Positions 3,336-61,427 of a stretch of 61,427 nucleotides of DNA are shown in pieces. A program made the position numbers and the translations under genes. Source of the stretch: a virus; the IMG/VR virus record IMGVR_UViG_3300045988_166584; one strand, written 5' to 3'. The notes beneath the pieces are model-generated. The model was not told the origin of the DNA. It saw only the letters and a list, made by a program, of their open reading frames with translations, and searched no databases. How positions within the stretch are numbered: position 1 is the first letter of the stretch; each line of letters opens with the position of its first letter.

Positions 3336-5963
3336 TTATGGTAGATAATAATCCCCGGTTTCTATTCTTTCTCCCTCCACATAACCAAGTTCAAGCAAAG
3401 TATTCCACATTTTAGCAGCCCAAATATAGGATAATAAATTATTCTGATGAATTTTATCACTGCCGGGCCAAAAGAGTGTTTCATAATCCGATGCTGTATA
3501 TTGACCTTCTATAATACCCAACGCTTGTCCATCATAAACTGCTTGTCCTTGAGTATAAGCGCGAAGATTGATATATCTTGCACCAAAACATTTATTAGCT
3601 TGATAGACTAGCTGATTAGTTGTAAGGGACAAGGGCGTAGAACAGACAATATACTTCTCAGAAAAATTATTAGCCGATGAACTGACCATATTAGCCCAAT
3701 CTTCTTCTGACTCGTATCCATAATTCTGACCTGTAAACCATATATGAGGATAATCCTTGTCATCATACAATGCAGCGTCAAAAAACACATTGCCTACACC
3801 TATTTTTGTTTCTCTTCCTTCTTCCAACCTTGTAAATTCATACAATAAAGAGGTGGCTAAGCTGTCAAAATAAATTTTTCCTTGTTTTATAGGCAGCAGC
3901 TCACTGCACTTGAATAATTCAGAGTAATGATATTGTCCCTTACTATCTATATAGCCATCTCTTGTTGCATTAGTTTTAATGTCCACCGTATCTTCGTTTA
4001 TTGTAATATGTGGTTCTCCAACATTTGGATTATTTATTGTGAATGTATATTTTGTCGCAGTAGATGGAATTGAATGGGTGCCAGTCTCGGATAGACTTTT
4101 TATAAATGTGCCATTCTCTGTATAAAATGCTATACCAACAGCGTCAATGGCTTGCTTTGCCAAATTTCCTCTTATACCATTAATAACTACCTGTACGTTT
4201 TGCCCATCTGATATAGCAACATAAGGTGTGTCGTGATAAATTCCGTCACTTTTTATCCATGCGCTTTCTAAAGCACAAATAACAGGGCCTTTGGCTGGTA
4301 TAGTAAACTCACCTTTAACCCTTATACCTATACCTCCTGCCCTTGTTAAATTGCCAATAGTTTTTTCGCCACCTTGGCATCTTTGAATTAATTCATATCC
4401 TGTAAATTTAAATATATTATTAAGTTGTTTTATTATCAATGCACTATTATTACCACACAGTGAATCTCCTACTATAACAACTCTTTTAGGCTTAGGCTTT
4501 TCAGAAGAAATTCCTGCTTTATAAACAATGATACTTGGTTCTCCAACAGCAATAAATTCATTATCTGAAGTAGATTTTGTCTGTAATATAAGTTCTAATT
4601 TTGTATATTGAGAATAATCTGATGTGTTGATAGTTACTGGTCCTGTTCCGTTTGTTAATTCATAAATTACATTATCATCTCCATACAGTATAAAAGCTGA
4701 CAACCTATTTGTATTATTAGACAGACTACCATTATTAGATAGTCCTTTAATAGTAACTGTATCATAATTAGATATATCTAATTTATCTGTGCTCCATAAT
4801 TTTTGTATTGAATTATAACCTTGAGTTGTTCCGTTCGGTTGATTTGCCCCCGTAAGCCATCTTCTTTTATTCCAAGTAAAAGAATTAAATATATCTATAT
4901 TATCTGCTCCAGAAATTAAATAATTAATTTTTTCTATTTCTGTGGTATTAAATTCAACAGAATCAGATAAATTATTAAAATCTTCTCTTGAAGCTACAGA
5001 ACTATCCATTATGACTATAATACTTGAATCATTTTTTGGAATAAATTCATCATCTGAAGTTGATTCACATTGTAAAATTAATTCCAGCTTGGTATATTGG
5101 GAATAGTCTGATGTATTAATAATAGTTTCACCACTTGCATCTCTAATTCCTTTAACAAGGGTATTATCACCATAAATACATATACCATTTAATGCAGATG
5201 CACTTGTGCTTATGGATGAGCCATCTAATAATCCATCGCAAATAATACTATCATATTCTGAAATGTCAATCCTTGCATACCAAATTTTTTGAACAGCATT
5301 ATATCCCAACTCCCCGCCATTAGGTTGATTTGTTCCTGTTACCCATCTTTTTTTATTCCAAGTAAGGACACCTATGACATCTTTCTCCAACCCTTCTATT
5401 TTATTTATAGAAGATTGAATAGATATAAGTTCTTCAGGCTTAACTACTTTAGCTTTGCTGTTGGCAATAACAGAAGGAATTATAGAATTATCTTGTTTTG
5501 CTTGAATAATGATGTTAATATTGCTTCTGTCGGAATATTTATCCATATTAATAACCGCAGAACTACCCCTCAAATATTCTATTTGTTCGCTACCACTATA
5601 AATACTAATTGAAGGGAAAATATCAGAAACGTCTACTTTTTCTGATAGTCCTGACATTTTTAGAGTATCGTAATATCCTACATCTGTCAATTTGGTATGC
5701 TTATAATTTTGTTTTTGAATACTATTACCCGCAGACGAATTTGTTTCCCAATCCCATGTGCCATCTATCCATACTGTATTTTCTGTTATAAGATCTTTAT
5801 CTATAGAGCCTTCTATTTGTGTCTTTAAATAAATTTCCTCATTTTCTAACTCTGAAAGTTCCGTAGTCAGACTTTTTCGTGTATTGGGGTTGACCACCGC
5901 ATCATAGATGGTAGCCGGGAATATGGTTTGTCCACCCTTGGTCAGTTTATGCATTTTTACCAT
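3336..5963 (-). CDS. Tail fibre / receptor-binding protein B with a GDSL/SGNH esterase domain
   Basis: 875-aa ORF sharing the N-terminus MVKMHKLTKGGQTI. It has two tandem ~160-aa repeats (WNKKRWVTGTNQPNG... and WNKRRWLTGANQPNG...), the GDS block VVIVGDSLCGN and a C-terminal GSDKIHQ (D-x-x-H). Confidence 0.7.
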   Translation of the reverse strand: MVKMHKLTKGGQTIFPATIYDAVVNPNTRKSLTTELSELENEEIYLKTQIEGSIDKDLITENTVWIDGTWDWETNSSAGNSIQKQNYKHTKLTDVGYYDTLKMSGLSEKVDVSDIFPSISIYSGSEQIEYLRGSSAVINMDKYSDRSNINIIIQAKQDNSIIPSVIANSKAKVVKPEELISIQSSINKIEGLEKDVIGVLTWNKKRWVTGTNQPNGGELGYNAVQKIWYARIDISEYDSIICDGLLDGSSISTSASALNGICIYGDNTLVKGIRDASGETIINTSDYSQYTKLELILQCESTSDDEFIPKNDSSIIVIMDSSVASREDFNNLSDSVEFNTTEIEKINYLISGADNIDIFNSFTWNKRRWLTGANQPNGTTQGYNSIQKLWSTDKLDISNYDTVTIKGLSNNGSLSNNTNRLSAFILYGDDNVIYELTNGTGPVTINTSDYSQYTKLELILQTKSTSDNEFIAVGEPSIIVYKAGISSEKPKPKRVVIVGDSLCGNNSALIIKQLNNIFKFTGYELIQRCQGGEKTIGNLTRAGGIGIRVKGEFTIPAKGPVICALESAWIKSDGIYHDTPYVAISDGQNVQVVINGIRGNLAKQAIDAVGIAFYTENGTFIKSLSETGTHSIPSTATKYTFTINNPNVGEPHITINEDTVDIKTNATRDGYIDSKGQYHYSELFKCSELLPIKQGKIYFDSLATSLLYEFTRLEEGRETKIGVGNVFFDAALYDDKDYPHIWFTGQNYGYESEEDWANMVSSSANNFSEKYIVCSTPLSLTTNQLVYQANKCFGARYINLRAYTQGQAVYDGQALGIIEGQYTASDYETLFWPGSDKIHQNNLLSYIWAAKMWNTLLELGYVEGERIETGDYYLP

Positions 5964-46811: not shown

Positions 46812-47006
46812 TTACTTCAATTTAGCGAGTTTAACGATGTTGTCTAGAGCATTAATGCTGCTTTCGTGTCGTGCCTGTAGGCGGGTGAACGAATCGAGCC
46901 ACATGTCGCTCTGTTCCTTGACTTCTTTAAGGTCTTGTTCCAGTTCTTGTACACGTCTTACAAGGTCTTCGTGTGTCATGCTTTGTAATTCTTCTACTGT
47001 TGTCAT
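46812..47006 (-). CDS. Small coiled-coil protein
   Basis: The preferred start is ATG 47006 (MTTVEELQSM). The track's TTG at 47039 would overlap the upstream small ORF. Confidence 0.45.
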   Translation of the reverse strand: MTTVEELQSMTHEDLVRRVQELEQDLKEVKEQSDMWLDSFTRLQARHESSINALDNIVKLAKLK

Positions 47007-47010
47007 AGCT

Positions 47011-47169
47011 TTATTTTTTTTGATTTTCAATATTGTCAAGTTCGTTGCTTATCACTAGTAGTGTGGCGGTGAATGATGCTGCCGCCACCCAAAACCATGC
47101 GTCCATGTTCTGCATGGTAAGAAGGAGCACTAGAAAGGATGCTCCACAGATGGAAATCATTGTTTTCAT
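47011..47169 (-). CDS. Small membrane peptide (52 aa, below the ORF-track cutoff)
   Basis: Hand-translated as MKTMISICGASFLVLLLTMQNMDAWFWVAAASFTATLLVISNELDNIENQKK. It starts directly after the stop of 47170-48129. Confidence 0.45.
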   Translation of the reverse strand: MKTMISICGASFLVLLLTMQNMDAWFWVAAASFTATLLVISNELDNIENQKK

Positions 47170-48129
47170 TTATAAGTATATAGATCTTGCAAAATCATTC
47201 TTTGCTATTTTATCATACCAATAATCCTCTTCATTTTCATCATAGGATTGGGGCTCTATTGTCACGTTCCTTTTAATCTTGTCTTTGTGACTTATTACAT
47301 CATCCAGTGCTCTAATTGCTTTCCTCAACATTTCCGCATTGGAAATCCTTCTACGCTTCATGAGTTTCATTAGATAGTACATCTCTCTTTCACCTTTGAT
47401 CTCAACTAATAATGCCCTGTTGTTAGGATTTGCCGTAAAAGGATATGCTGGCTGTTTTATCAGTCTATAAAGGCTGAACACTTTTCCTATCATGGAGTCG
47501 TCCAAAGCTCTTTCTTTTTTCGAAACACAAGACGCTCTCAGCGCAATCCTTATCAAATCACATACATTCATACCGTTTTGGTTCGCGTAACTATTTATCA
47601 TTTGGTATATTTCTTCCGGGATAACAGTTTGTAACCTAACGGATATGTCATACTTTGCTTTGGGATTTTTCATATATGCTATCCTTTTGCACATTCTGTC
47701 CAACAGTCTGTCAGGAGCATTATAGAAAGCTGTAACTGCATGGTAATATATTTCGTTTCTGAACCGATAACCACTCTTGCTCATGTTGAGGGAAACGGCG
47801 TTTTTCAAGTCTACAGGTATTGCCCCGATAGAATAATATACATACTTATTAGGGGTATTGTATTCTTTACCATATTTCCAGACTTTCATTGCAATACTTT
47901 CACAAGGTTTTCCGCATATATGAGCGATGTAATTAGATAATAGGTAGCACATTATTTCAACTCTGTAGGCTTTGTTGCGGTATAAAGAGAATTTTAACAT
48001 GATTTTTTCTCTTTCTTCTTTTGTCATGTAAAGAGTCAGACATGAAATTTGATTTTCCTTTCCGCCCTTCCAGCCTTTCGGCATTATCGAAAGGTTGATT
48101 TCTTTGTTTAATCTAATTAGGTTTCTCAT
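47170..48129 (-). CDS. Protein built from repeated ribbon-helix-helix-like modules
   Basis: 319 aa with at least three RHH-like units, for example ISVRLQTVIPEEIYQMINSYANQNGMNVCDLIRIALRA and LLVEIKGEREMYYLMKLMKRRRISNAEMLRKAIRAL. Confidence 0.5.
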   Translation of the reverse strand: MRNLIRLNKEINLSIMPKGWKGGKENQISCLTLYMTKEEREKIMLKFSLYRNKAYRVEIMCYLLSNYIAHICGKPCESIAMKVWKYGKEYNTPNKYVYYSIGAIPVDLKNAVSLNMSKSGYRFRNEIYYHAVTAFYNAPDRLLDRMCKRIAYMKNPKAKYDISVRLQTVIPEEIYQMINSYANQNGMNVCDLIRIALRASCVSKKERALDDSMIGKVFSLYRLIKQPAYPFTANPNNRALLVEIKGEREMYYLMKLMKRRRISNAEMLRKAIRALDDVISHKDKIKRNVTIEPQSYDENEEDYWYDKIAKNDFARSIYL

Positions 48130-48508
48130 AAGTAGATATTATTAGTTTGTGCCCCGATAACCTCTCTCTGGTCTTCCCACCGGAGTTGTCAGCTACTGTT
48201 CTTCACTGCATAACCGTTCGGGGCATGATTGCCCTTTTTATTTTACCCTTACACGCTTGGCGCCCTTTGCCGCTTGTTCACTCAGGAATATTGCGTATTG
48301 CATTGTACCTTTCTCAGTACGCAAACGGCAGCTTTCAGTTACCTCCGGGACTGCACCCGTAACCCTACTCAAGTCTGCTTCTGCTGTCACCAGTTCCGAG
48401 TCTTTCGGGATGTGTTGTTGCGGAGTGTCGCTTCTCCTGTTTGTTATGGTCAAACTCCATTTAGTAGCGGTAATCCCATCAAAAGGTAGGCTCGCTGGCC
48501 GTTACCGC
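48130..48508 (-). ncRNA. Candidate structured non-coding RNA or long structured leader
   Basis: About 380 nt, visibly more G+C-rich than its flanks. Short ORFs are open in several frames on both strands, which is typical of non-coding G+C-rich sequence. Many helices are present, including AGCGGTAA/TTACCGCT, TTGCGTA/TACGCAA and TGCCCCGA/TCGGGGCA. Confidence 0.4.
48221..48244 (+). terminator. Plus-strand hairpin with a T-tract, antisense to the leader of 47170-48129
   Basis: GGGCA-tgat-TGCCC is followed by TTTTTATTTT. Its left arm also belongs to the alternative long-range helix 48150-48157 / 48218-48225. Confidence 0.4.
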
Positions 48509-48793
48509 TTAATCTCCGCAGTACTGGGAGCCTAAATATCCACGGCTGTTGGAGTTGTAGCAGTCTGACCATTCGGCTTTGAAAGTGACTTTTTCTGCTT
48601 TGACCGGAGTGAACACTTTGTTATTTCTTTCTTCCTGTTGTCTTGCCAGCTCTTCTTGCATTGTAACATTCAGTTTTGCCAGTTTCCATGTTGATTTCAG
48701 AACTTCACCGAAGGTCTTGCCTTGTTTCTTGCCTACATACTTGTAAGTTCTGTGGGCATCTCTCATAATCTGTCGTAAATCGAATCTTTTCAT
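48509..48793 (-). CDS. Hypothetical protein, first gene of the leftward early operon
   Basis: 94-aa ORF, 86 nt downstream of the minus-strand -7 box at 48880-48887. Confidence 0.55.
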   Translation of the reverse strand: MKRFDLRQIMRDAHRTYKYVGKKQGKTFGEVLKSTWKLAKLNVTMQEELARQQEERNNKVFTPVKAEKVTFKAEWSDCYNSNSRGYLGSQYCGD

Positions 48794-48852
48794 TGTCTTA
48801 CCTCTTTTTAGTTATTACTTTTATTTGGTTATCTCACTCAAACTTGCTTTCT

Positions 48853-48902
48853 TTGTTTATTGTTTGTTGTTTGATGCTGCAAAGATAAAGAATTTATCTT
48901 TA
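48853..48902. promoter_or_regulatory. Divergent switch promoters with heptad repeats and a palindromic operator
   Basis: There are three TTGTTT(A/G) heptads at 48853-48873, a minus-strand box TATCTTTG at 48880-48887, the palindrome AGATAAA-gaa-TTTATCT at 48883-48899, and a plus-strand near-consensus box TATCTTTA at 48895-48902. Confidence 0.5.
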
Positions 48903-48953
48903 TAAAGTCTTTATTCAGCAAATTAATTCTTTATATTAACTTTATTTTACTTT

Positions 48954-49262
48954 ATGACAGGAAACGAGGTTCGCTCCATATTATTAGAAAATGGATTTGT
49001 ATTAGCAGAAGTGGCTGACAAACTTGGTATCACAGCCCAAACGCTTAATAGTAGGTTAAATGCTAAAAATTTTAAGAATGAATATCTAACTGAATTATCG
49101 AATATCCTTAACGTGTCGTTTGAAACAAAACCTGTTCAGGATATAGATAATCTCATGTCTTTAATTGAAAGTCAAAAGCAGATGCTTGAGAGTCAGCAGC
49201 GAACAATTGAAAATCTTTCACGCACCATAGATACTCTTTCAAAAACTTTGCAACATCAATAA
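48954..49262 (+). CDS. Cro/XRE-like HTH protein with a C-terminal coiled coil
   Basis: 102 aa. The HTH region is LAEVADKLGITAQTLNSRLNAKN, and heptad-like repeats follow. Confidence 0.6.
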   Translation: MTGNEVRSILLENGFVLAEVADKLGITAQTLNSRLNAKNFKNEYLTELSNILNVSFETKPVQDIDNLMSLIESQKQMLESQQRTIENLSRTIDTLSKTLQHQ

Positions 49263-49342
49263 ATCAAAGAACACAGAGTTTACCTCTTTTTAGTTAGTCA
49301 ATATTTTTGCACTTCCGAACTATTTTTCGTTCCTTTGTGCTG

Positions 49343-49444
49343 TTGTTTATTGTTTGATGTTGCAAAGATACTAACTGTTTGTATTAATGCAAACTTTTGC
49401 TTATAAAAAGTTAGTTTATTTACAACATTTAACTAACAGTTAGT
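49343..49444. promoter_or_regulatory. Second switch region: heptads, -7 box and ACTAAC/GTTAGT operator half-sites
   Basis: TTGTTTATTGTTTGAT lies at 49343-49358 and a minus-strand box TATCTTTG at 49363-49370. Half-sites are ACTAAC at 49370-49375 and GTTAGT at 49410-49415. The perfect palindrome ACTAAC-A-GTTAGT lies at 49432-49444, 10 nt before the repressor ATG. Confidence 0.5.
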
Positions 49445-49454
49445 ATATATCGAT

Positions 49455-50156
49455 ATGAAACCTTGGGAACGCATACAAAAAATAATGGATGAAGAAGGAC
49501 TTAATAAAAATTCCTTCAGTAAGGCTATTGGCATTTCAAATAATGTCACTATAACCCGTATTATCAATGAAAAACGCTCTCCGTCAAGGAGTACATGTGA
49601 AAAAATAGTTTCCGCCTTTCCTAAATATAATCTTGCATGGATACTAACTGGAGAAGGAAGTATGCTAACTGATATAACTTCTTATGATGAAGCATCTCCG
49701 ATTGACGAGCCAATCATACTACGTGTACCACTCGTGAGTCAATACGCGCAAGCAGGATACCTCTGCGGATACGCGGATGCAGCATACATGGCAACTTTGC
49801 CTACTATACCATATATAGTAGACCATGAAGCGCAAGGACACTACGTTGCCTTTGAGGTGAAAGGAGACAGTATGAATGACGGGACAGAGGATGCCATTTT
49901 GGAAGGTGACCGCCTGCTGTGTCGGGAAATTATGCCGCATCTATGGGCAGATAGCAAACTGCATATCAGAAAATGGGATTTCGTTATCGTACATACTGAA
50001 GGAATACTGGTGAAGCGTATCATTGATCATAATGTGGAAAACCATACCATCACAATACACTCACTGAACTCAATGTACCTGGATAAAGTCATCAGCCTTT
50101 CTGACGTGAAGCAGATATTCAATGTTATAGAATTACAAAGACCAAGAAGACGATGA
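49455..50156 (+). CDS. CI/LexA-type repressor (XRE HTH plus S24 peptidase)
   Basis: The HTH is FSKAIGISNNVTITRIINEKRSPS. The S24 catalytic motifs are EVKGDSMNDG (Ser) and ILVKRI (Lys). Confidence 0.85.
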   Translation: MKPWERIQKIMDEEGLNKNSFSKAIGISNNVTITRIINEKRSPSRSTCEKIVSAFPKYNLAWILTGEGSMLTDITSYDEASPIDEPIILRVPLVSQYAQAGYLCGYADAAYMATLPTIPYIVDHEAQGHYVAFEVKGDSMNDGTEDAILEGDRLLCREIMPHLWADSKLHIRKWDFVIVHTEGILVKRIIDHNVENHTITIHSLNSMYLDKVISLSDVKQIFNVIELQRPRRR

Positions 50157-51001
50157 GTTTATTCAACATATTCAGCCAAAAGAAAGCTATAAAAGAAGAA
50201 CTTGTTTCCCAAAAGGAATACTACACATCGGAGGAAATTGAGGCTATCGCTTGTAAGGGCTTCAGAGACAAATGGCAAATCGGAATAAGAGATAACCCTA
50301 ATTTGTTTCCTGTTATGTTTGAATGGCGTACGATAGGAGAATATAAAAGCATTTTGTGTTTTAAGAGTTTTAGAACAGAAGAATTGAATTACGCTCCTGT
50401 CTTCACTAGTTTTGATGACAGCCTAAAGGAATTTTTCCATGAAGACGGAAAGTCAGACCCGGTTTCTTTAAAAACAACTTTTTTTGGATATGTTATATTG
50501 AAATATCCTGTTGAAAAGTGTGCGGTTCGTATTTTGGCTCCCATATATAATGAGATGTACAAAAGAAACCATAAACCTGTTGAGGATTTTTCTGATATTC
50601 TTGAAATAGACTTTTCTCCTGAAGCTATATTGAATCACGAACAGGAAGTTGAACGTATGGCAAATGAAGCAAAGGCTAAAAGAGAACGTGAAGAAATTGA
50701 AGCTATAAAAGAAAAACTCCTTAAAAAGAAACGTAAAGAGCAGTTAGAAAAAATGGCTTTACGTGAACTAATGGATGAGGGTATTTTATTCCCAGAAGCT
50801 GGGAAACGACCACCTATACCAAAAGATGTCGTAGATGCAGTTTGGAGAAGGGATGGAGGAAGATGTGTTTATTGCGGTTCTACTGAAAACCTGCAGCTTG
50901 ACCATATTATTCCCTTTTCCAAAGGTGGTGCGACTACAGTGGAGAATCTTCAATTATTATGCCAAAAATGTAATTTACAAAAATCAAATAAAATAGGATA
51001 A
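50153..51001 (+). CDS. HNH endonuclease with an unknown N-terminal domain and a central coiled coil
   Basis: The HNH region is CVYCGSTENLQLDHIIPFSKGGATTVENLQLLCQKCNLQKSNK. Its start overlaps the repressor stop (ATGA). Confidence 0.8.
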   Translation: MSLFNIFSQKKAIKEELVSQKEYYTSEEIEAIACKGFRDKWQIGIRDNPNLFPVMFEWRTIGEYKSILCFKSFRTEELNYAPVFTSFDDSLKEFFHEDGKSDPVSLKTTFFGYVILKYPVEKCAVRILAPIYNEMYKRNHKPVEDFSDILEIDFSPEAILNHEQEVERMANEAKAKREREEIEAIKEKLLKKKRKEQLEKMALRELMDEGILFPEAGKRPPIPKDVVDAVWRRDGGRCVYCGSTENLQLDHIIPFSKGGATTVENLQLLCQKCNLQKSNKIG

Positions 51002-51180
51002 TGATGAAAGAATATATAGCTATATTTGAATATAATGGAGAAATACAGAATCTAGAATTTGTGTCTAATTCAAACTCTCAAGAAAAACTAAATTCTGAAG
51101 CAAGAATGTATGTAAATGACTATCTTCTAACAAAATATGGAACTGTTACATATCATTTTATAAGAGTTATTCCTAAATAA
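51001..51180 (+). CDS. Hypothetical small protein (59 aa, below the ORF-track cutoff)
   Basis: Hand-translated as MMKEYIAIFEYNGEIQNLEFVSNSNSQEKLNSEARMYVNDYLLTKYGTVTYHFIRVIPK. Its ATG overlaps the HNH stop (TAATG). Confidence 0.45.
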   Translation: MMKEYIAIFEYNGEIQNLEFVSNSNSQEKLNSEARMYVNDYLLTKYGTVTYHFIRVIPK

Positions 51181-51216
51181 GAACCATTTTAAACACAATG
51201 TTTATATAAGCTAAAG

Positions 51217-51786
51217 ATGAAAGTCAATATTAAAGTTAGAGATAATTATAAAAGCTATTGCTCCTTAATAGATGAAGAGAAAATTTTGTTAAATAACAAA
51301 ATCGTTCTTGACGAAAAGAAAAATAGCAGACCGGATTATAAAGAAAAAAATACTCCTACTTATAGCGATGTCTTACCAAATGATATAATTTTTACCATAC
51401 AACAAAAAGAAACTGAAGAAAAAGATTTTAAATTCATTTTACGCTGTGTTCCTTTTTGTGAAAGACCTTTTTTTAGATATGATTCTACGGGACCTTCTCA
51501 TAGGAATTCCAATTTGCCTATTCCTATAGAGGAACAACAAGTTCCAACTCCTCATTTTCATCGGTTCGTAGCTGATGGAAAGGAGATAGCTTACAAGACA
51601 AAGGTGCTGTTGGATGAAAAGCAATCAAAAGTTTTGGAAGATATTTCTATGTGTGTTTTGCATTTTATGCAGGAGGCCAATATAAAATTTGAAAATTTTG
51701 ATTTAATTTCGACCCCAGGTGTTCTTCCTTTTAAAATGGAAGAAAATATTGATCCTTTAGAAAATGTACAATTTGATATTGAATAA
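51217..51786 (+). CDS. Hypothetical protein
   Basis: 189-aa ORF with conserved-looking His/Cys patches (CVPFCERPFFRYDSTGPSHRN and PTPHFHRF). No family recognised. Confidence 0.55.
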   Translation: MKVNIKVRDNYKSYCSLIDEEKILLNNKIVLDEKKNSRPDYKEKNTPTYSDVLPNDIIFTIQQKETEEKDFKFILRCVPFCERPFFRYDSTGPSHRNSNLPIPIEEQQVPTPHFHRFVADGKEIAYKTKVLLDEKQSKVLEDISMCVLHFMQEANIKFENFDLISTPGVLPFKMEENIDPLENVQFDIE

Positions 51787-51788
51787 TC

Positions 51789-52592
51789 ATGGAAGATATA
51801 ATAAAGATTATAATAGCGTCATTTAGTTCTTTGTGGAAAGTGAAAAAATATGGAAAGACCATAGAAATAATAACGCCTTTCTTTACCACAAATGATTGCT
51901 TTGTTTCTGTTTTTCTAACAGAAAGAGAGGGCTATTACATTATTACTGATGGTGGTTGGATTAGTGAAAATTACTATAATAATTTTTTCGATAGTGATGA
52001 TGAGTCTTATTTAAGACTGTTCACTTATTATAAGGAACAATATTCTATACGTGAGACGGAATCAAACAATAAAATTTATTATTATAAAACTACAATGAAA
52101 AAAGAATTAGTACCAAATTTGGTTCTTGAGGTGTCTAATTTTATTTCAACCGTGGTAAGTTCTTCTTTTATAAAATTTCAAGATGATAAGGATAAGGATT
52201 TGCAAAAGAGATTCCGTACGCAGGTGAGTAACTTTCTTACAGCTGGGTTTGATAAGAAGGAATTGTCGTTTAATGGGTTTATTGATGAGAGGTATAAGGA
52301 TATAAAATTTAATGCTGTTGTTAAAAGAAGTGATAGATTTACATTGTTTAATTACGTAACTGGTACTACTGAATTTTATTTTCGTGGTAGTATTGGACGT
52401 TCTAATATGAATTTCCAGTTAATAAATAGGACAATGCTAAAAAAGCAGATACATAGGCGTGTGACGGTTGTGAATGATCAAGCTTCAGGATATAAAATTG
52501 AAAAATTGAAACAATATCTTGACTTGATATCGGATGAAGCGGAGTCTGTAGTCGTTAATTGGACTAATAGAAAAAAACTATTAGAATTATAA
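51789..52592 (+). CDS. Hypothetical protein (possibly DUF1828/DUF1829-like)
   Basis: 267-aa ORF starting 2 nt after the previous stop. The segment IITPFFTTNDCFVSVFLTEREGYYIITDGGW recalls DUF1828, but this is a low-certainty recollection. Confidence 0.55.
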   Translation: MEDIIKIIIASFSSLWKVKKYGKTIEIITPFFTTNDCFVSVFLTEREGYYIITDGGWISENYYNNFFDSDDESYLRLFTYYKEQYSIRETESNNKIYYYKTTMKKELVPNLVLEVSNFISTVVSSSFIKFQDDKDKDLQKRFRTQVSNFLTAGFDKKELSFNGFIDERYKDIKFNAVVKRSDRFTLFNYVTGTTEFYFRGSIGRSNMNFQLINRTMLKKQIHRRVTVVNDQASGYKIEKLKQYLDLISDEAESVVVNWTNRKKLLEL

Positions 52593-52619
52593 TGGGATGA
52601 TGATTGTTTAATACGAAAA

Positions 52620-52720
52620 AACGTTAGACAATGTAATAATGAAGTCGGTGATACTAGTGTGGGGAGCTTTAGCTTTTATGCCAAGAATGCAATCTACAAA
52701 GATCAAATAAAATAGGATAA
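52620..52720 (+). pseudogene. Remnant of a second HNH gene 3' end
   Basis: 52676-52720 matches 50957-51001 at 41 of 45 positions and ends in the same ...SNKIG stop. Upstream similarity (GDTSVGSFSF against GATTVENLQL) is broken by a frameshift and an in-frame TAG at 52670-52672. Confidence 0.65.
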
Positions 52721-52739
52721 ACTTATAATTAAATTTAAG

Positions 52740-53510
52740 ATGAAAATACATCATTATACTTCTATTGAAACATTAGAAATGATTCTTAAGAACAAAAGTA
52801 TAAAGTTTAATCGTTTGGATCAAGTGGATGATAAAGCAGAATATAAATATGACTCAACGGTTTATGATACGAATATAAAATTAGGTAAATATACTTTTGT
52901 GAGTTGTTGGACTAAGTCGGAAATGGAAAATATTGATTTATGGAATCGATACGGGAAAGGGAATAAAGGTGTAAGGATAAGTTTGGATGAGGATATGTTT
53001 GAAACTTACGATGTGGGAACTGTTAATAGATCATTTTATAATAATAGGGAATATTGTTTTGAAAATTTTGTAGTCAGTTCTTATATTAATAAAGTCGGTC
53101 TTGTTGATGTGAAATATGAACAAAATATTGAGCTATATTATAAAGAAGCTATCAAATGCTTTGATCAAGGAGTTGCGTTTAAACATGATAATATTGGCAT
53201 TTATAAGAAAAGGGAATGGGGATTACAGAATGAAAGCCGTTTCATTATTCATGCACAACCGTTTGAACCGGCTTTAATGAGCAATCATCCTTTGAGCTTT
53301 CCGTTGGCTCTTGGTACTGCTTATAGAAATGGAATGGAGCTGAGTAGAACAGCCCTTTATATTCCATTAAAGCAGGAAGTTTTAGAGCATTTAGAAATAA
53401 CAATGGGACCTGGAACAACTGATGAAGATCGGAAAAAGGTTGAAAAGATATTGAAAGATTGTAATATTAAAGCAGAAATCAAAGATAGTGCATTAAAGGG
53501 GGATTTATAA
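52740..53510 (+). CDS. DUF2971-family protein (paralogue 3 of 3)
   Basis: 256 aa with the N-terminal signature KIHHYTSIETLEMILKNKSIKFNRLDQVDDKAEY. Confidence 0.65.
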   Translation: MKIHHYTSIETLEMILKNKSIKFNRLDQVDDKAEYKYDSTVYDTNIKLGKYTFVSCWTKSEMENIDLWNRYGKGNKGVRISLDEDMFETYDVGTVNRSFYNNREYCFENFVVSSYINKVGLVDVKYEQNIELYYKEAIKCFDQGVAFKHDNIGIYKKREWGLQNESRFIIHAQPFEPALMSNHPLSFPLALGTAYRNGMELSRTALYIPLKQEVLEHLEITMGPGTTDEDRKKVEKILKDCNIKAEIKDSALKGDL

Positions 53511-53527
53511 TATGACTATTCTGGAAA

Positions 53528-53677
53528 ATGTTAGATTATGCTTGGCTAGGTATAGTAGTTCAGTTTATTGACGAAAACAAGAAAGATGTGAAACACGTTA
53601 TTGAAAGCCTTGATGATATTTATAACTATGAGGATGAATTCTTTAAGGCGATCGATATGTACGAACATAAGGAATAG
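53528..53677 (+). CDS. Possible small acidic protein (49 aa)
   Basis: Hand-translated as MLDYAWLGIVVQFIDENKKDVKHVIESLDDIYNYEDEFFKAIDMYEHKE. Support is weak. Confidence 0.3.
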   Translation: MLDYAWLGIVVQFIDENKKDVKHVIESLDDIYNYEDEFFKAIDMYEHKE

Positions 53678-53769
53678 GATAAAAGTTCTAGAAGATTAAT
53701 TAAAAATAATTGCAGCATTAGCAAATGTATTGTTAGTGCTGCAATGTGAACATTGGAGTTTTATTATAT

Positions 53770-54030
53770 ATGATTCAAAGCATATATGACTGTTCATGTC
53801 AGTGGAAAAATCAAAAACACTGTAGGCTTTCACCTTCATGCAAAGGGTGGGGATGCCGATTTCTGTCTACGCCCATTGAAGAGATTCCAGCAACAATCCA
53901 GGAGAAAGCAAAGCTCTTTTCCAGAGTGTATCGGGAAGCGAAGCAAAAGGGAGTGCTGGAATGCCCGCACTACCGATCAATTTTCATAGATGAGGTGCTG
54001 GCCAATTTGCCGAAGGGTGAAGTGTGTTAA
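53770..54030 (+). CDS. Small Cys-rich hypothetical protein
   Basis: The preferred start is ATG 53770 (MIQSIYDCSCQW) rather than the track's GTG at 53746. Confidence 0.4.
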   Translation: MIQSIYDCSCQWKNQKHCRLSPSCKGWGCRFLSTPIEEIPATIQEKAKLFSRVYREAKQKGVLECPHYRSIFIDEVLANLPKGEVC

Positions 54031-54047
54031 ATAAATGGTTTATGTTA

Positions 54048-54076
54048 TTGTTTATTGTTTGATTTTCGTATATTTG
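54048..54076 (+). promoter_or_regulatory. Promoter: heptad element TTGTTTATTGTTTGAT plus the -7 box TATATTTG
   Basis: An exact TAnnTTTG lies at 54069-54076, 18 nt before ATG 54095. The 16-mer at 54048-54063 is identical to 49343-49358. Confidence 0.55.
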
Positions 54077-54094
54077 CAATAAATCTTAATTTGA

Positions 54095-54337
54095 ATGGGA
54101 AGTTGGAGTGAACAACAGGAAGTAAAGAAAGAAGTCAAGGAAAAGGACAAGGTAAGACGGGAAAAACTTGCCGGGTTGTTTTTTGATTTAGCAAAACTTT
54201 CATTTGCCGGACTTGTTGTAGGTGGAATAGTTTCCATGAAGCCTGATGTAGATATAACCCTTGACATATACAGGGTTATTATAGGTGGAATCTCTACCAT
54301 CATTTTTATTAGAATAGGAAATACAATTTTAAAATAA
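54095..54337 (+). CDS. Small membrane protein (2 TM); superinfection-exclusion candidate
   Basis: 80 aa with a charged N-terminus followed by LAGLFFDLAKLSFAGLVVGGIV and VIIGGISTIIFIRIG. Confidence 0.55.
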   Translation: MGSWSEQQEVKKEVKEKDKVRREKLAGLFFDLAKLSFAGLVVGGIVSMKPDVDITLDIYRVIIGGISTIIFIRIGNTILK

Positions 54338-54345
54338 AGTGGATT

Positions 54346-54450
54346 ATGGACATGTTAAGTTTAGTATATACAATAAGTGCTGTTGTAGGTGGTGGATTTT
54401 TGGTGTGGCTTAACACAAAATCCGGGAAAAAATGGCTCGCAAATCTATAG
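54346..54450 (+). CDS. Small hydrophobic peptide (34 aa)
   Basis: Hand-translated as MDMLSLVYTISAVVGGGFLVWLNTKSGKKWLANL. It starts 8 nt after the previous stop. Confidence 0.35.
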   Translation: MDMLSLVYTISAVVGGGFLVWLNTKSGKKWLANL

Positions 54451-54693
54451 TGTACTTTTCATTGGAAATTGAGGGTATTATGGACGCATTAGGTTTTAGT
54501 CTGGCAACAAAAAGTGGTTGGCTGGTCTGTGCTCTCTGATGCCTTACAATTTTGGTTAATGTATGAAAAGGAAATCCCTTGAATGTTTATGGTCGTTCAA
54601 TTATAGTAGTGAGTTGAGCGGCTTTTTAGTATTTGGACGTTAGAACAGGGAAAATAATGAATAAAATAAAATAGAAAATCAAGATGATTTTTA

Positions 54694-54705
54694 CTAAAAC
54701 GAATC
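54694..54705 (+). repeat. 12-bp direct repeat CTAAAACGAATC (copy 1), candidate integrase arm site
   Basis: Identical 12-mer at 54927-54938. The two copies flank the tRNA-like 3' fragment. Confidence 0.5.
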
Positions 54706-54786
54706 TTGGAGGATTTTGAATGGATAGATAACCTTCTGCTTGTCAGTATAGTAAGCGCAGATCAGAATTCATACTGGCAGTCTAAA

Positions 54787-54815
54787 GGTGGCGAGTTCGA
54801 GTCTCGCATGCTCCA
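54787..54815 (+). other. tRNA 3'-end fragment (T arm plus acceptor 3' strand); probable attP core
   Basis: GCGAG-TTCGAGT-CTCGC is followed by ATGCTCC-A. No matching 5' acceptor, D arm or anticodon arm lies upstream. It is located 134 nt upstream of the integrase gene. Confidence 0.6.
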
Positions 54816-54926
54816 CATTACAAGCCTCTCTGTTTCAGAGGGGTTTGTGTTTTCTTAAGCTTCTCCAGCTTTCGTTTTTGGATAAAAAAAAGACAGTTTG
54901 TGCCACTTTTGGCAAAAAGAACTTGT

Positions 54927-54938
54927 CTAAAACGAATC
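54927..54938 (+). repeat. 12-bp direct repeat CTAAAACGAATC (copy 2)
   Basis: Identical to 54694-54705 and lies 10 nt upstream of the integrase ATG. Confidence 0.5.
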
Positions 54939-54948
54939 CAGAACAATT

Positions 54949-56124
54949 ATGACAACTCTTAAAGCCGCCGTTGTTCCGGCCAAGGTGCTGAAAAACGGCA
55001 AACACAGAATTCGTATCGCAATTGGTCATAAACAGGAAACAAGATACATCGTTACCCGATTTGAAATAGATAATACTGCTAATTTTAAAGGAGGGCAGGT
55101 GGTAGGTGTTCCTGATGCCGCACATGTCAATGCTAAATTACGTGGAATACTTAATTCATATCAGGATGCCTTGGATAAGATAAACACATCATCCTATACT
55201 TGTACCCAACTTGTCGAATACTTGTCCTCGGTAAAGCAGGGAGCCATCTCTTATAGTGTCGCTTCGGCTGACTATATGCAGAATTTGATTAAAGAGGGGA
55301 GAAGGACCACTGCCTCCTTATATCAAAGGGCGAGTGATTACTTCATTGAGTTTGTCAAATATGATATAATGCTTGATGGAATTACTCCCCGGACCATAAA
55401 GGACTTTGATATTTATCTAAAGAATGTCCGAAGGCTGGCTCCTGTTACTTGTGGTATGCACATGGCACATTTGAAGGCAATAATCAATCAAGCAATAAGG
55501 GATAAGAAGGTATCATATGACACGCATCCTTTTGAATATTATGAAAGACCAGCAGGAATGCCCAAAGAGCGTGATATCTCGGTAGCTGACGTAAAGAAGA
55601 TAAGGGATGCGGAGATAAAAGAGAAGTCTCAGCGTGTTGCCAGGGATGTGTTCATGCTTTCGTATTATCTAGGAGGTATCAATCTGATGGACTTGATGCA
55701 ATACAATTTCAAAGATGCGAAAATTATGGAATATGTACGTGAAAAATCCAAAAACACAAAGAAAGGTGATATGAAGATTAGCTTCACTATTCCTGAGGAA
55801 GCAAAACCGATTATCAAAAGATGGATGGGACGTAATGGAAAGCTTGATTTTGGTTATAAATATTCTTATCCTAATTTTCGTAACTATGTAACAAAAGAAA
55901 TTATAAGGTTAGGGGAGAGGCTGGAGGTAGAATCGCATGTCGTATATTATTCAGCCCGGAAATCCTTTGTCCAACATGGTTTTGAACTGGGTATACCATT
56001 GGAAACTTTGGAATATTGTATAGGCCAAAGCATGAAATCCAATAGACCGATCTTTAATTATGTCAGAATTATGAGAAAACATGCTGATGAAGCCATAAGA
56101 AAGATTTTAGATAATCTAAAGTGA
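54949..56124 (+). CDS. int: Tyrosine site-specific integrase (Bacteroides type)
   Basis: 391 aa. The N-terminal arm-binding-like region is LKAAVVPAKVLKNGKHRIRIAIGHKQETRYI. The C-terminal catalytic region is YYSARKSFVQHGFELG...NYVRIM. Confidence 0.85.
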   Translation: MTTLKAAVVPAKVLKNGKHRIRIAIGHKQETRYIVTRFEIDNTANFKGGQVVGVPDAAHVNAKLRGILNSYQDALDKINTSSYTCTQLVEYLSSVKQGAISYSVASADYMQNLIKEGRRTTASLYQRASDYFIEFVKYDIMLDGITPRTIKDFDIYLKNVRRLAPVTCGMHMAHLKAIINQAIRDKKVSYDTHPFEYYERPAGMPKERDISVADVKKIRDAEIKEKSQRVARDVFMLSYYLGGINLMDLMQYNFKDAKIMEYVREKSKNTKKGDMKISFTIPEEAKPIIKRWMGRNGKLDFGYKYSYPNFRNYVTKEIIRLGERLEVESHVVYYSARKSFVQHGFELGIPLETLEYCIGQSMKSNRPIFNYVRIMRKHADEAIRKILDNLK

Positions 56125-56325
56125 GGATTCAAGAACTAGAGCGATTGCTTCGGCAGTCGCTTCCTCTTTTTCTTTCTCTATCTCCGAGTTTAGCCGTTCT
56201 ATCAAATCCACATTTCCTGTGACAATCGTTTTTGTGCCCTCAGAGGAAGAAATTGTAAGTTCATAGTGTCCATAGCCTATAAACTTTTTAGATAGTTGAT
56301 GAGTAGTTGGGGCTAATTTTGACAT
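56116..56325 (-). CDS. Hypothetical small protein convergent with the integrase
   Basis: The preferred internal start is ATG 56325 (MSKLAPTTHQLSKKF...). The N-terminal 55 aa of the track ORF look non-coding. Confidence 0.35.
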   Translation of the reverse strand: MSKLAPTTHQLSKKFIGYGHYELTISSSEGTKTIVTGNVDLIERLNSEIEKEKEEATAEAIALVLESSL

Positions 56326-61308: not shown

Positions 61309-61427
61309 AAGTTCCCCCGGAACTTAGGCTAATAACAGGAGATATTATGGTAAAAATGCATAAACTGACCAAGGGTGGACAAACCATTTATCCAGCTACC
61401 ATTTATGACGCAGTGGTCAACCCCAAG
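61309..61427. repeat. Second copy of the terminal overlap (same as 1-119)
   Basis: Verbatim repeat of 1-119. It restarts the fibre A gene (ATG at 61347) and is cut off by the window end. Confidence 0.95.

Follow-up and report, generated by a model that had tools for sequence, protein, structure and literature searches.

The 61,427-nt virus record IMGVR_UViG_3300045988_166584 of IMG/VR, referred to below in its whole length as the window, carries in its repressor operon an HNH endonuclease gene followed by three open reading frames (ORFs), ORF59, ORF189 and ORF267, named after their lengths in amino acids, with a copy of the HNH 3' end on either side. These three genes (the trio) sit in a variable cargo slot, the second copy of the HNH end is the scar of an earlier join, and recombination between the two copies excises the trio; of this structural and evolutionary part we have little doubt. 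ORF189 and ORF267 form a conserved pair that sequence comparison places, as a diverged member, in the PADLOC candidate system PDC-M24 (DUF6978-like + DUF1828-like). An anti-phage function of this pair is proposed tentatively, as a possibility falling somewhat short of probable. Taken as a whole, a slot with scar and excision holding a lysogen-expressed anti-phage system of the PDC-M24 kind is the reading that we favor as reasonably probable.

The HNH gene (50153..51001, plus strand, 282 aa; Pfam HNH, PF01844, 57.8 bits against a cutoff of 21.4) has its HNH domain at residues 238-281, where the motif CxxC...DH...N...CxxC is present as RCVYCGS...LDHIIPFSKGG...VENLQLLCQKCN. Its final 45 nt (50957-51001) recur at 52676-52720 at an offset of 1,719 nt, with 41 of 45 positions identical and four mismatches, both copies encoding ...C-Q-x-C-N-L-Q-x-S-N-K-I-G-stop. 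This repeat, first noticed by a sequence-only reading of the window, is confirmed by direct reading, by a repeat search and by shuffling. The repeat search delimits the two copies as 54 nt at 85% identity (50948-51001 and 52667-52720), which rank first among the direct repeats of the 6-kb region and second by length in the 61-kb window, after a 119-nt terminal overlap. A 35-nt sub-pattern with up to three mismatches matches at these two places only, and two matches occurred in none of 100 dinucleotide shuffles. Local alignment to HNH alleles (8 of 8) extends the similarity further, with the right copy being a 79-nt HNH 3' remnant (52642..52720, plus strand) that aligns, with one 1-nt deletion, on the final 80 nt of the intact gene (50922..51001, plus strand). 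Upstream of the 45-nt core, the remnant is significantly similar to the alleles of L001, L025 and L027 (1 of 500 shuffles; L numbers are our handles for the contigs and loci compared) and not to the window's own HNH gene (126 of 500 shuffles). Because this upstream part resembles other alleles, the right copy is the frameshifted remnant of a second, diverged HNH allele. The sequence-only reading had proposed such a remnant but placed its upstream limit at about 52620, while the alignments start at about 52642. The remnant was also considered as an RNA element and rejected, as it has no significant secondary structure (z = 0.26).

Among 26 viral contigs found via the DUF2971 gene that lies 3' of the remnant (gene start 52740, remnant end 52720, in the order noted earlier), 19 harbor the trio and the remnant, three have another upstream gene, and four (L016/L086, L065, L073 and L075) pass from an intact 216-aa HNH gene straight into DUF2971. 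When these four trio-minus contigs are compared with Bacteroides phage BS-TP3 (PQ571276.1; host B. salyersiae), both flanks are 99-100% identical, the alignments of the two flanks have exactly the 45-nt repeat in common, and what is lacking is exactly the 1,719 bp between the repeats. Their junctions are not the same. L016 is of the left-copy type throughout, which places its crossover in the final 19 identical nt; L073 switches type between core positions 10 and 15; L065 joins a left-type flank to a full remnant-type core, and L075 does so in a lineage with a variant remnant. The C-termini of the four HNH ORFs represent four combinations of CQ[K/E]CNLQ[K/R]SNKIG, and the crossovers fall in at least three distinct intervals of the 45-nt repeat. 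When the empty junction was searched for as an exact pattern, a single contig was returned, an undercount since the remaining empty junctions are chimeric.

Judging from their junctions, these four natural recombinants show that general homologous recombination from repeat to repeat deletes the trio precisely and repeatedly, restoring an intact chimeric HNH gene, and they bear out the earlier proposal of recombination at the HNH 3' end. The chimeric junctions also indicate that the polymorphism probably reflects loss rather than gain. A site-specific mechanism is disfavored because the switch points differ between contigs, and an integron-like cassette was rejected on the same ground and because the remnant shows no significant structure; the sole integrase is that of the phage attachment site (attP), about 2.2 kb downstream.

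The three tightly packed ORFs lie between the two copies as originally described (51001-51180, 51217-51786 and 51789-52592), but the repeats that flank them here do not define the cassette. In an HNH-less lineage with a related phage backbone (L058-L061), blastn aligns window positions 51004..52606 (plus strand) with 7225-8815 of L058 at 73% identity between non-homologous flanks. The gene order there is S24 repressor, a 54-aa gene, the homologs of ORF59 (72% identity), ORF189 (80%) and ORF267 (66%), a gene for a 231-aa membrane protein, the 'CKGWGCRF' gene described below and an integrase gene, and neither an HNH gene nor HNH-end repeats were found. As these phages carry the trio without either, the trio is a discrete 1.6-kb transferable module. 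This goes against a cassette bounded by repeats in general, while the surroundings are not unrelated, an S24 repressor gene again lying upstream. The remnant begins 36 nt past the end of the module (52606 to 52642) and by this comparison belongs to the DUF2971 module, not to the trio. All three ORFs are under strong purifying selection relative to this 66-80% identical lineage, the ratio of non-synonymous to synonymous substitution (dN/dS) being 0.28 for ORF59 and 0.08 for ORF189, and the proportions of non-synonymous and synonymous differences (pN and pS) in ORF267 being 0.19 and 0.83. Moreover, the trio behaves as a moron or accessory cassette, being present or absent between near-identical phages (flanks 99-100%) and having an atypical G + C content (29% in the 51-53 kb segment, about 42% in the remaining genome).

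The conserved unit is smaller than this module. ORF189 lies first in the window, co-oriented with ORF267 at a gap of 2 nt, and in 15 of 15 bacterial genome loci, 13 of them from Bacteroidota, an ORF267-like gene directly follows an ORF189-like gene on the same strand. The arrangement also occurs in L038-L046 and L058-L061 and is kept in five metagenomic contexts (ORF189/ORF267 identities of 62/63, 52/58, 40/36 and 32/42%), the divergence of the two proteins co-varying across contexts. No conserved third gene was found beside the pair in distant loci: ORF59 is common only to L058-L061, and L092 and L097 share upstream genes of their own. Since distant occurrences keep ORF189 and ORF267 only, the conserved unit has two genes, ORF59 being a lineage-specific addition. 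The three-gene unit of the sequence-only reading thus stands as a module in L058-L061, but its conserved core is the pair. ORF59 (51001..51180, plus strand), whose start overlaps the HNH stop (TAATG), is restricted to this lineage, with near-identical homologs only apart from the one in L058-L061, and has no family match in the profile libraries. None of the three genes has a match in NCBIfam, and searches of the trio against PHROGs gave nothing significant.

The surroundings of the pair are sometimes those of defense genes. In three further phage lineages it is again found downstream of S24 repressors or at the ends of prophages. In L092 a Type I restriction-modification (R-M) operon (hsdM/hsdS) follows it on the same strand at a distance of 23 nt; in L102 it adjoins a Type IIG enzyme, in L096 a PDC-S33-like gene, and in L099 it lies near a Type II restriction endonuclease and a PDC-M26A-like gene. 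A batch scan of 121 neighbor genes returned many matches to R-M, MADS, AbiL, AriA-like, PglX and DrmMII, as well as integrases, transposases and housekeeping genes. No defense neighbors were found at L088, L090 and L093; over all loci, the recurrent embedding expected of PDC-M24 is present. In L043 (8992-10484) and L044 (5506-6998), the next genes after the pair in this repressor-side operon are an Apyc1-like one of metallo-beta-lactamase fold (anti-Pycsar family) and a sigma-70 family gene. PDC systems are 'guilt-by-embedding' candidates, recurrently embedded in known defense loci, and only some of them have been tested and validated (PMC12881386).

ORF189 (51217..51786, plus strand, 189 aa) matches the PDC-M24A profile with an E-value of 9.3e-5 (residues 22-158 on profile positions 10-136 of 146, judged by E-value and not by the PADLOC score cut-offs), and this profile is matched by 20 of 20 of its relatives, with a best E-value of 2.1e-7. 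ORF189 itself does not match Pfam DUF6978 (PF22398) at E-values up to 1, nor does it reach the gathering cutoff of 29.6 bits, whereas nine of the 20 relatives do match at E-values up to 1 (best 2e-7), three of them scoring 26.5-27.9 bits (3e-6 to 8e-6), below the cutoff. From these scores, ORF189 is a distant relative of DUF6978 that lies outside the curated family. Its family is small, a search of 1.84 billion representatives giving 272 clusters at 50% identity; the best 150 of these 272 clusters are mostly about 185-195 aa long, with a few of up to 283 aa that have N-terminal extensions and with no clear domain fusion. The alignment shows the invariant pattern FRYDSxGPxHRN...TPHFH...C146...H149...E153, with invariant residues R87, D89, S90, H95, N97, H113, H115, C146, H149 and E153; these may form a metal or active site. 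The structure model is of good quality (predicted local distance difference test, pLDDT, 87.5; predicted template modelling score, pTM, 0.79), and Foldseek found no neighbor for it in PDB and BFVD (best E-values 0.2 and 0.3, respectively; template modelling (TM) score < 0.26). Family-profile sequence searches of both ORF189 and ORF267 against PDB gave nothing meaningful.

ORF267 (51789..52592, plus strand, 267 aa; model pLDDT 87.7) is a two-domain protein that is tentatively assigned to PDC-M24B by transitivity through its homologs, because its own match reaches only an E-value of 0.02. Of its 23 relatives, 10 match one PDC-M24B model and 5 the other (best E-value 4.6e-7). At E-value limits of 0.1 or 1 there is no match of ORF267 to Pfam DUF1828 (PF08861), which six of the 23 relatives do reach (best E-value 7.8e-4); the DUF1828 name of the protein comes from the BS-TP3 GenBank record and UniRef. 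Both DUF6978 and DUF1828 are uncharacterized families. The N-terminal domain of the predicted model superposes on YbjN/Spa15/SicP-like alpha-beta domains (TMt about 0.5), so that the fold searches proposed earlier for the trio gave a YbjN-like or type III secretion system chaperone-like domain for ORF267 and no neighbor for ORF189. The whole protein weakly matches CARF-nuclease effectors and restriction-enzyme folds (E-value 3e-3 or weaker, TM about 0.33). The two-domain likeness to the CARF/SAVED-type effector nucleases Card1, Cdn1 and Can2 is a lead and not a classification, since ORF267 differs from them in having no conserved D...(D/E)xK signature. The invariant residues of its C-terminal half are F142, T191, G192 and W258, none of them acidic or lysine; an active PD-(D/E)xK nuclease was considered and rejected, as the D...(D/E)xK residues are not conserved and the fold matches are weak. 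In L057 (1-8000), an ORF267 homolog of 85% identity stands beside a truncated ORF189 homolog (residues 143-189 left), and the truncated pair abuts the tyrosine integrase of a mobilizable element with a Mob_Pre relaxase, a Toprim primase, DUF5906 and a class A beta-lactamase (Beta-lactamase2), which appears to have inserted into the pair.

These matches correct the first impression of three ORFs with no recognizable function in that ORF189 and ORF267 do have recognizable relatives, in DUF6978, DUF1828 and PADLOC PDC-M24. Like other members of PDC-M24, some of which lie beside R-M systems, the window pair consists of two adjacent co-oriented genes with A before B; it differs in that its proteins are distant members, in being prophage cargo of a repressor operon, and in having an extra 59-aa gene upstream. 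The suggestion of a candidate novel defense module therefore holds for 'candidate', given the PDC-M24 A and B matches and the R-M neighbors, but not wholly for 'novel', because PADLOC already lists the family: the cassette is a diverged phage-borne member of a candidate kind already catalogued, not a new category.

The slot that holds the trio was examined in 36 viral contigs with HNH relatives, retrieved and mapped with the window proteins. The sequence ...AAATCAAATAAAATAGGATAA is kept in them at the end of otherwise diverged HNH genes, and at least five unrelated sequences follow this conserved end: the trio, DUF2971, a 191-aa and a 188-aa signal-peptide protein, and a 117-aa lipoprotein. 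Every alternative cargo is then followed by a conserved gene of about 85 aa, the 'CKGWGCRF' gene (53746..54030, plus strand, probable start near 53770), which forms the right boundary of the slot. The idea of a hot spot in the repressor operon is thereby borne out, and the search for alternative cargo suggested with it finds DUF2971 and three secreted or lipoprotein genes in the place of the trio. Comparison across these contigs supports a variable slot in the repressor operon behind the HNH end. In the window, the slot holds two stacked modules, the 1.6-kb trio and then DUF2971 with ORF49 (53528..53677, plus strand), which travels with it. The DUF2971-like gene (52740..53510, plus strand, 256 aa; Pfam DUF2971 E-value 0.0076, below the cutoff; PADLOC PDC-S31 E-value 2e-4; no match in NCBIfam) is an independent cargo module that always retains the HNH-end motif upstream. 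Directly 3' of ORF49, between the cargo slot and the 'CKGWGCRF' gene, lies a hairpin with a 16-bp perfect stem (53709..53745, plus strand; minimum free energy -25.5 kcal/mol, z = -4.4), which may act as a terminator or a site of processing.

Prophages are known to carry variable accessory slots next to their immunity genes, and short conserved sequences are known to mark the joints between modules. Cases of this kind, reportedly described by Juhala (2000), Clark (2001), Dedrick (2017) and Rousset (2022), include the hot spots of P2/P4, the variable central region of cluster N mycobacteriophages and the 'boundary sequences' of lambdoid phages. The slot shares with such moron and defense hot spots a fixed position between conserved genes near immunity genes, alternative and compositionally atypical cargo, presence or absence among near-identical genomes, and a short joint sequence as recombination substrate. 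It differs in that the joint is the coding 3' end of the HNH gene, duplicated as a pseudogene scar, hence the direct repeats and the precise excision, and in that independent excision products with mapped crossovers exist in public data.

Taken together, these observations show that the remnant at the left edge of the DUF2971 module is the scar of an earlier join, and forms with the intact HNH end the 45-nt direct repeat that flanks the trio. We propose that the trio would be transcribed in the lysogen together with the repressor, because the ORFs from the repressor through ORF267 overlap or nearly abut on one strand and no terminator-like site was detected on the plus strand in 48700-54259, including inside the trio and between the trio and DUF2971; the promoter scan was of the sigma-70 type, with Bacteroides promoters outside its coverage. 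ORF189 and ORF267 may then act as a two-protein anti-phage system of the PDC-M24 kind, of superinfection-exclusion or abortive-infection type. In it ORF267 would be a sensor or adaptor, joining a YbjN/chaperone-like ligand- or protein-binding domain to a degenerate alpha/beta domain, and ORF189 a metal-dependent effector with an invariant His/Cys/Asp/Glu cluster, ORF59 being presumably a lineage-specific accessory. A bolder suggestion, put forward more hesitantly still, is that the pair would be a mechanistically new two-protein anti-phage system, borne by one of the commonest human gut Bacteroides prophages and naturally excisable thanks to the duplicated HNH end, whose effector ORF189 would have a His/Cys metal center and a fold without neighbors among solved or virus-predicted structures; gut populations would then hold isogenic trio-plus and trio-minus lysogens of it.

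Several points weigh against this proposal. The match of ORF267 to PDC-M24B is weak and covers residues 1-56 only, its likeness to PD-(D/E)xK effectors is also weak (E-value about 1e-2, TM about 0.33), and no catalytic domain is recognizable in ORF189 or ORF267. A literature search on the function of PDC-M24, DUF6978 and DUF1828 found nothing, and no experiment linking them to phage defense. Several bacterial contexts have housekeeping neighbors only, and an anti-defense gene, the Apyc1-like one, adjoins the pair in L043 and L044. Finally, the suggested co-transcription with the repressor is deduced from gene spacing only, and for the non-chimeric L016 type an ancestral empty site is an alternative to deletion.

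The most serious competing explanation, which we nevertheless consider unlikely, is that the trio or the pair is lysogen-expressed cargo of a non-defense kind, either a toxin-antitoxin-like addiction or stabilization system or a lysogenic conversion function acting on host physiology, and that the association with defense loci reflects the general clustering of mobile accessory genes. It would account for the compact operon of two genes whose stop and start overlap, as in toxin-antitoxin loci, for the lack of any recognizable catalytic or defense-specific domain, for the repeated loss of the cassette without obvious harm to the phage, and for the many neighbors that are integrases, transposases or housekeeping genes. 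However, 189 and 267 aa are large for a classic type II toxin-antitoxin pair, the matches to PADLOC families agree with one another, R-M operons of unrelated genomes lie directly beside the pair, and the other cargos of the slot (lipoproteins, a transmembrane protein, DUF2971/PDC-S31) are exclusion-like.

Far less probable is a counter-defense module. Anti-defense genes cluster in variable phage slots too, the pair is phage-borne in most of its occurrences, and in L043 and L044 it stands immediately upstream of a member of the Apyc1-like anti-Pycsar/CBASS family. Against this, it belongs to a repressor operon oriented divergently from the early lytic genes, so that its expression would be expected in lysogens and not at an early stage of infection, and it is co-oriented with a Type I R-M operon in the bacterial chromosome of L092 and embedded in defense loci by the definition of PADLOC candidates (PMC12881386).

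On the side of mechanism, the HNH 3' end could be a dedicated exchange site, at which the HNH nuclease cuts other arrangements and drives a homing-like swapping. The N-terminal domain of the HNH protein differs among alleles and is swapped between relatives, which encode proteins of 216, 282 and 305-306 aa; at least three unrelated N-terminal domains are found on a conserved coiled-coil and HNH C-terminus, the 305-306-aa type having a transmembrane segment. The identity between BS-TP3 and the window is about 98% from a point within the HNH catalytic domain (about 50705-50860) to 56555, and left of this mosaic joint they carry unlike repressors and unlike HNH N-terminal domains, so that the C-terminal part of the HNH gene separates a variable immunity module from the variable cargo slot. 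The HNH gene thus lies exactly at the mosaic joints on both sides, and phage HNH genes are often homing nucleases. In addition, the motif is kept where the gene has gone: L030-L034 have a 148-aa membrane protein in its place with about 120 nt of the HNH 3' end left, and L083-L085 have a 261-aa membrane protein and then DUF2971, with about 25 nt of the motif kept out of frame. Swapping driven by the nuclease is nonetheless improbable, as the crossovers are spread over the 45-nt repeat in the manner of general homologous recombination, L058-L061 show the trio moving without HNH, and the HNH gene is near-universal at its position rather than sporadic. Finally, a chance match or assembly artefact, which the short repeat and its AT-rich, low-complexity sequence might suggest, is refuted by the shuffles, by the collinearity of the remnant with HNH over 79 nt, and by the two-copy structure being found in isolated and sequenced BS-TP3, in 19 of the 26 viral contigs and in 10 of 10 chromosome or metagenome places among the ORF267-identical matches listed.

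The favored reading, of an excisable cassette carrying a candidate anti-phage pair, concerns a common element. An identical ORF267 protein occurs in about 22,000 blocks of an assembly collection, the inspected contexts being all the same Bacteroidaceae prophage module, and the prophage is very common in human gut Bacteroides. Judging from this prevalence, many of the Bacteroides lysogens in the human gut would express the effect of the cassette, whatever its nature. The four mapped crossovers are an unusually clean record of short gene ends serving as joints for the shuffling of accessory genes beside a repressor, and ORF189 is a reasonable target for structure determination. Moreover, the catalogue entry PDC-M24 is now linked to a cultivable pair, BS-TP3 and B. 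salyersiae (PMC12694917), and to natural, precisely deleted isogenic variants, which makes its function directly testable.

The window as a whole is a complete phage genome, assembled as a circle of about 61.3 kb (about 61,308 bp), because its ends share a perfect 119-nt direct repeat (1-119 and 61309-61427). Over 75% of its length, region 48900-56200 is 98.9% identical to BS-TP3, a temperate phage that was isolated during work on the cultivation of gut phages (PMC12694917), and by this comparison the window is the genome of a temperate Bacteroides phage, 98-99% identical to BS-TP3 across the aligned part of the region. The lysogeny region reads on the plus strand: a helix-turn-helix (HTH) gene, the S24 repressor, HNH, ORF59, ORF189, ORF267, a 147-nt spacer, the DUF2971-like gene, ORF49, the hairpin, the 'CKGWGCRF' gene of about 85 aa, an 80-aa DUF6722-type gene (phrog_23063), the attP side and a tyrosine integrase gene. 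The first gene (48954..49262, plus strand) encodes a Cro/CI-type HTH protein of 102 aa (Pfam HTH_3 E-value 9e-6; phrog_8, transcriptional regulator), and the second (49455..50156, plus strand) a CI/LexA-like repressor of 233 aa with HTH and Peptidase_S24 domains (Pfam Peptidase_S24 E-value 2.5e-8, HTH_3; phrog_4, transcriptional repressor, E-value 4e-20), whose stop overlaps the start of the HNH gene. Relative to BS-TP3 (L037), the segment 47127-50705, with a 319-aa minus-strand gene, the 102-aa HTH gene, the S24 repressor and the HNH N-terminus, is replaced or diverged between flanks of 96-99% identity, and the window is probably a heteroimmune variant.

Homology to the integrated prophages L047 and L053 ends at 54819, which places the attP crossover within 54776-54849. 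The bases before it resemble a tRNA 3' end (GGCGAGTTCGAGTCTCGCATGCTCCA) and are followed by a 14-bp terminator-like hairpin; no complete tRNA was called at the attP side. In chromosomes, the lysogeny module adjoins DUF4286-RuvC-pullulanase-UxuA. In the Bacteroides chromosome L053 (1-1123), the same module adjoins a gene with a Mu-transposase C-terminal domain, which sits just beyond the 319-aa gene, the latter being 99% identical to window 46860-48236. The 80-aa DUF6722/phrog_23063 gene (window 54095-54337) has a tandem second copy of about 53% identity in L024 (11484-12106), L055 (8307-8935) and L073 (4856-5478).

Some copies of the cargo genes are disrupted. In L015 (10585-12050, on the same contig as L087), DUF2971 is split at residue 150 by an insertion of about 1.47 kb encoding, on the opposite strand, a 405-aa transposase of the IS701/IS4 family. 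Split or frameshifted copies of ORF189, ORF267 or DUF2971 are present in otherwise identical modules of L048 (5430-5998), L049 (6952-7723), L003 (9205-9965) and L010 (8606-9173), and represent either real pseudogenization or assembly errors. Elsewhere in the window, a 49-nt direct repeat of 84% identity, with copies 486 nt apart (4831-4879 and 5317-5365), lies inside an 875-aa minus-strand ORF (3336-5963); it may represent an internal domain repeat, or a template/variable pair like those of diversity-generating retroelements, which have been reported for related phages (PMC12694917).

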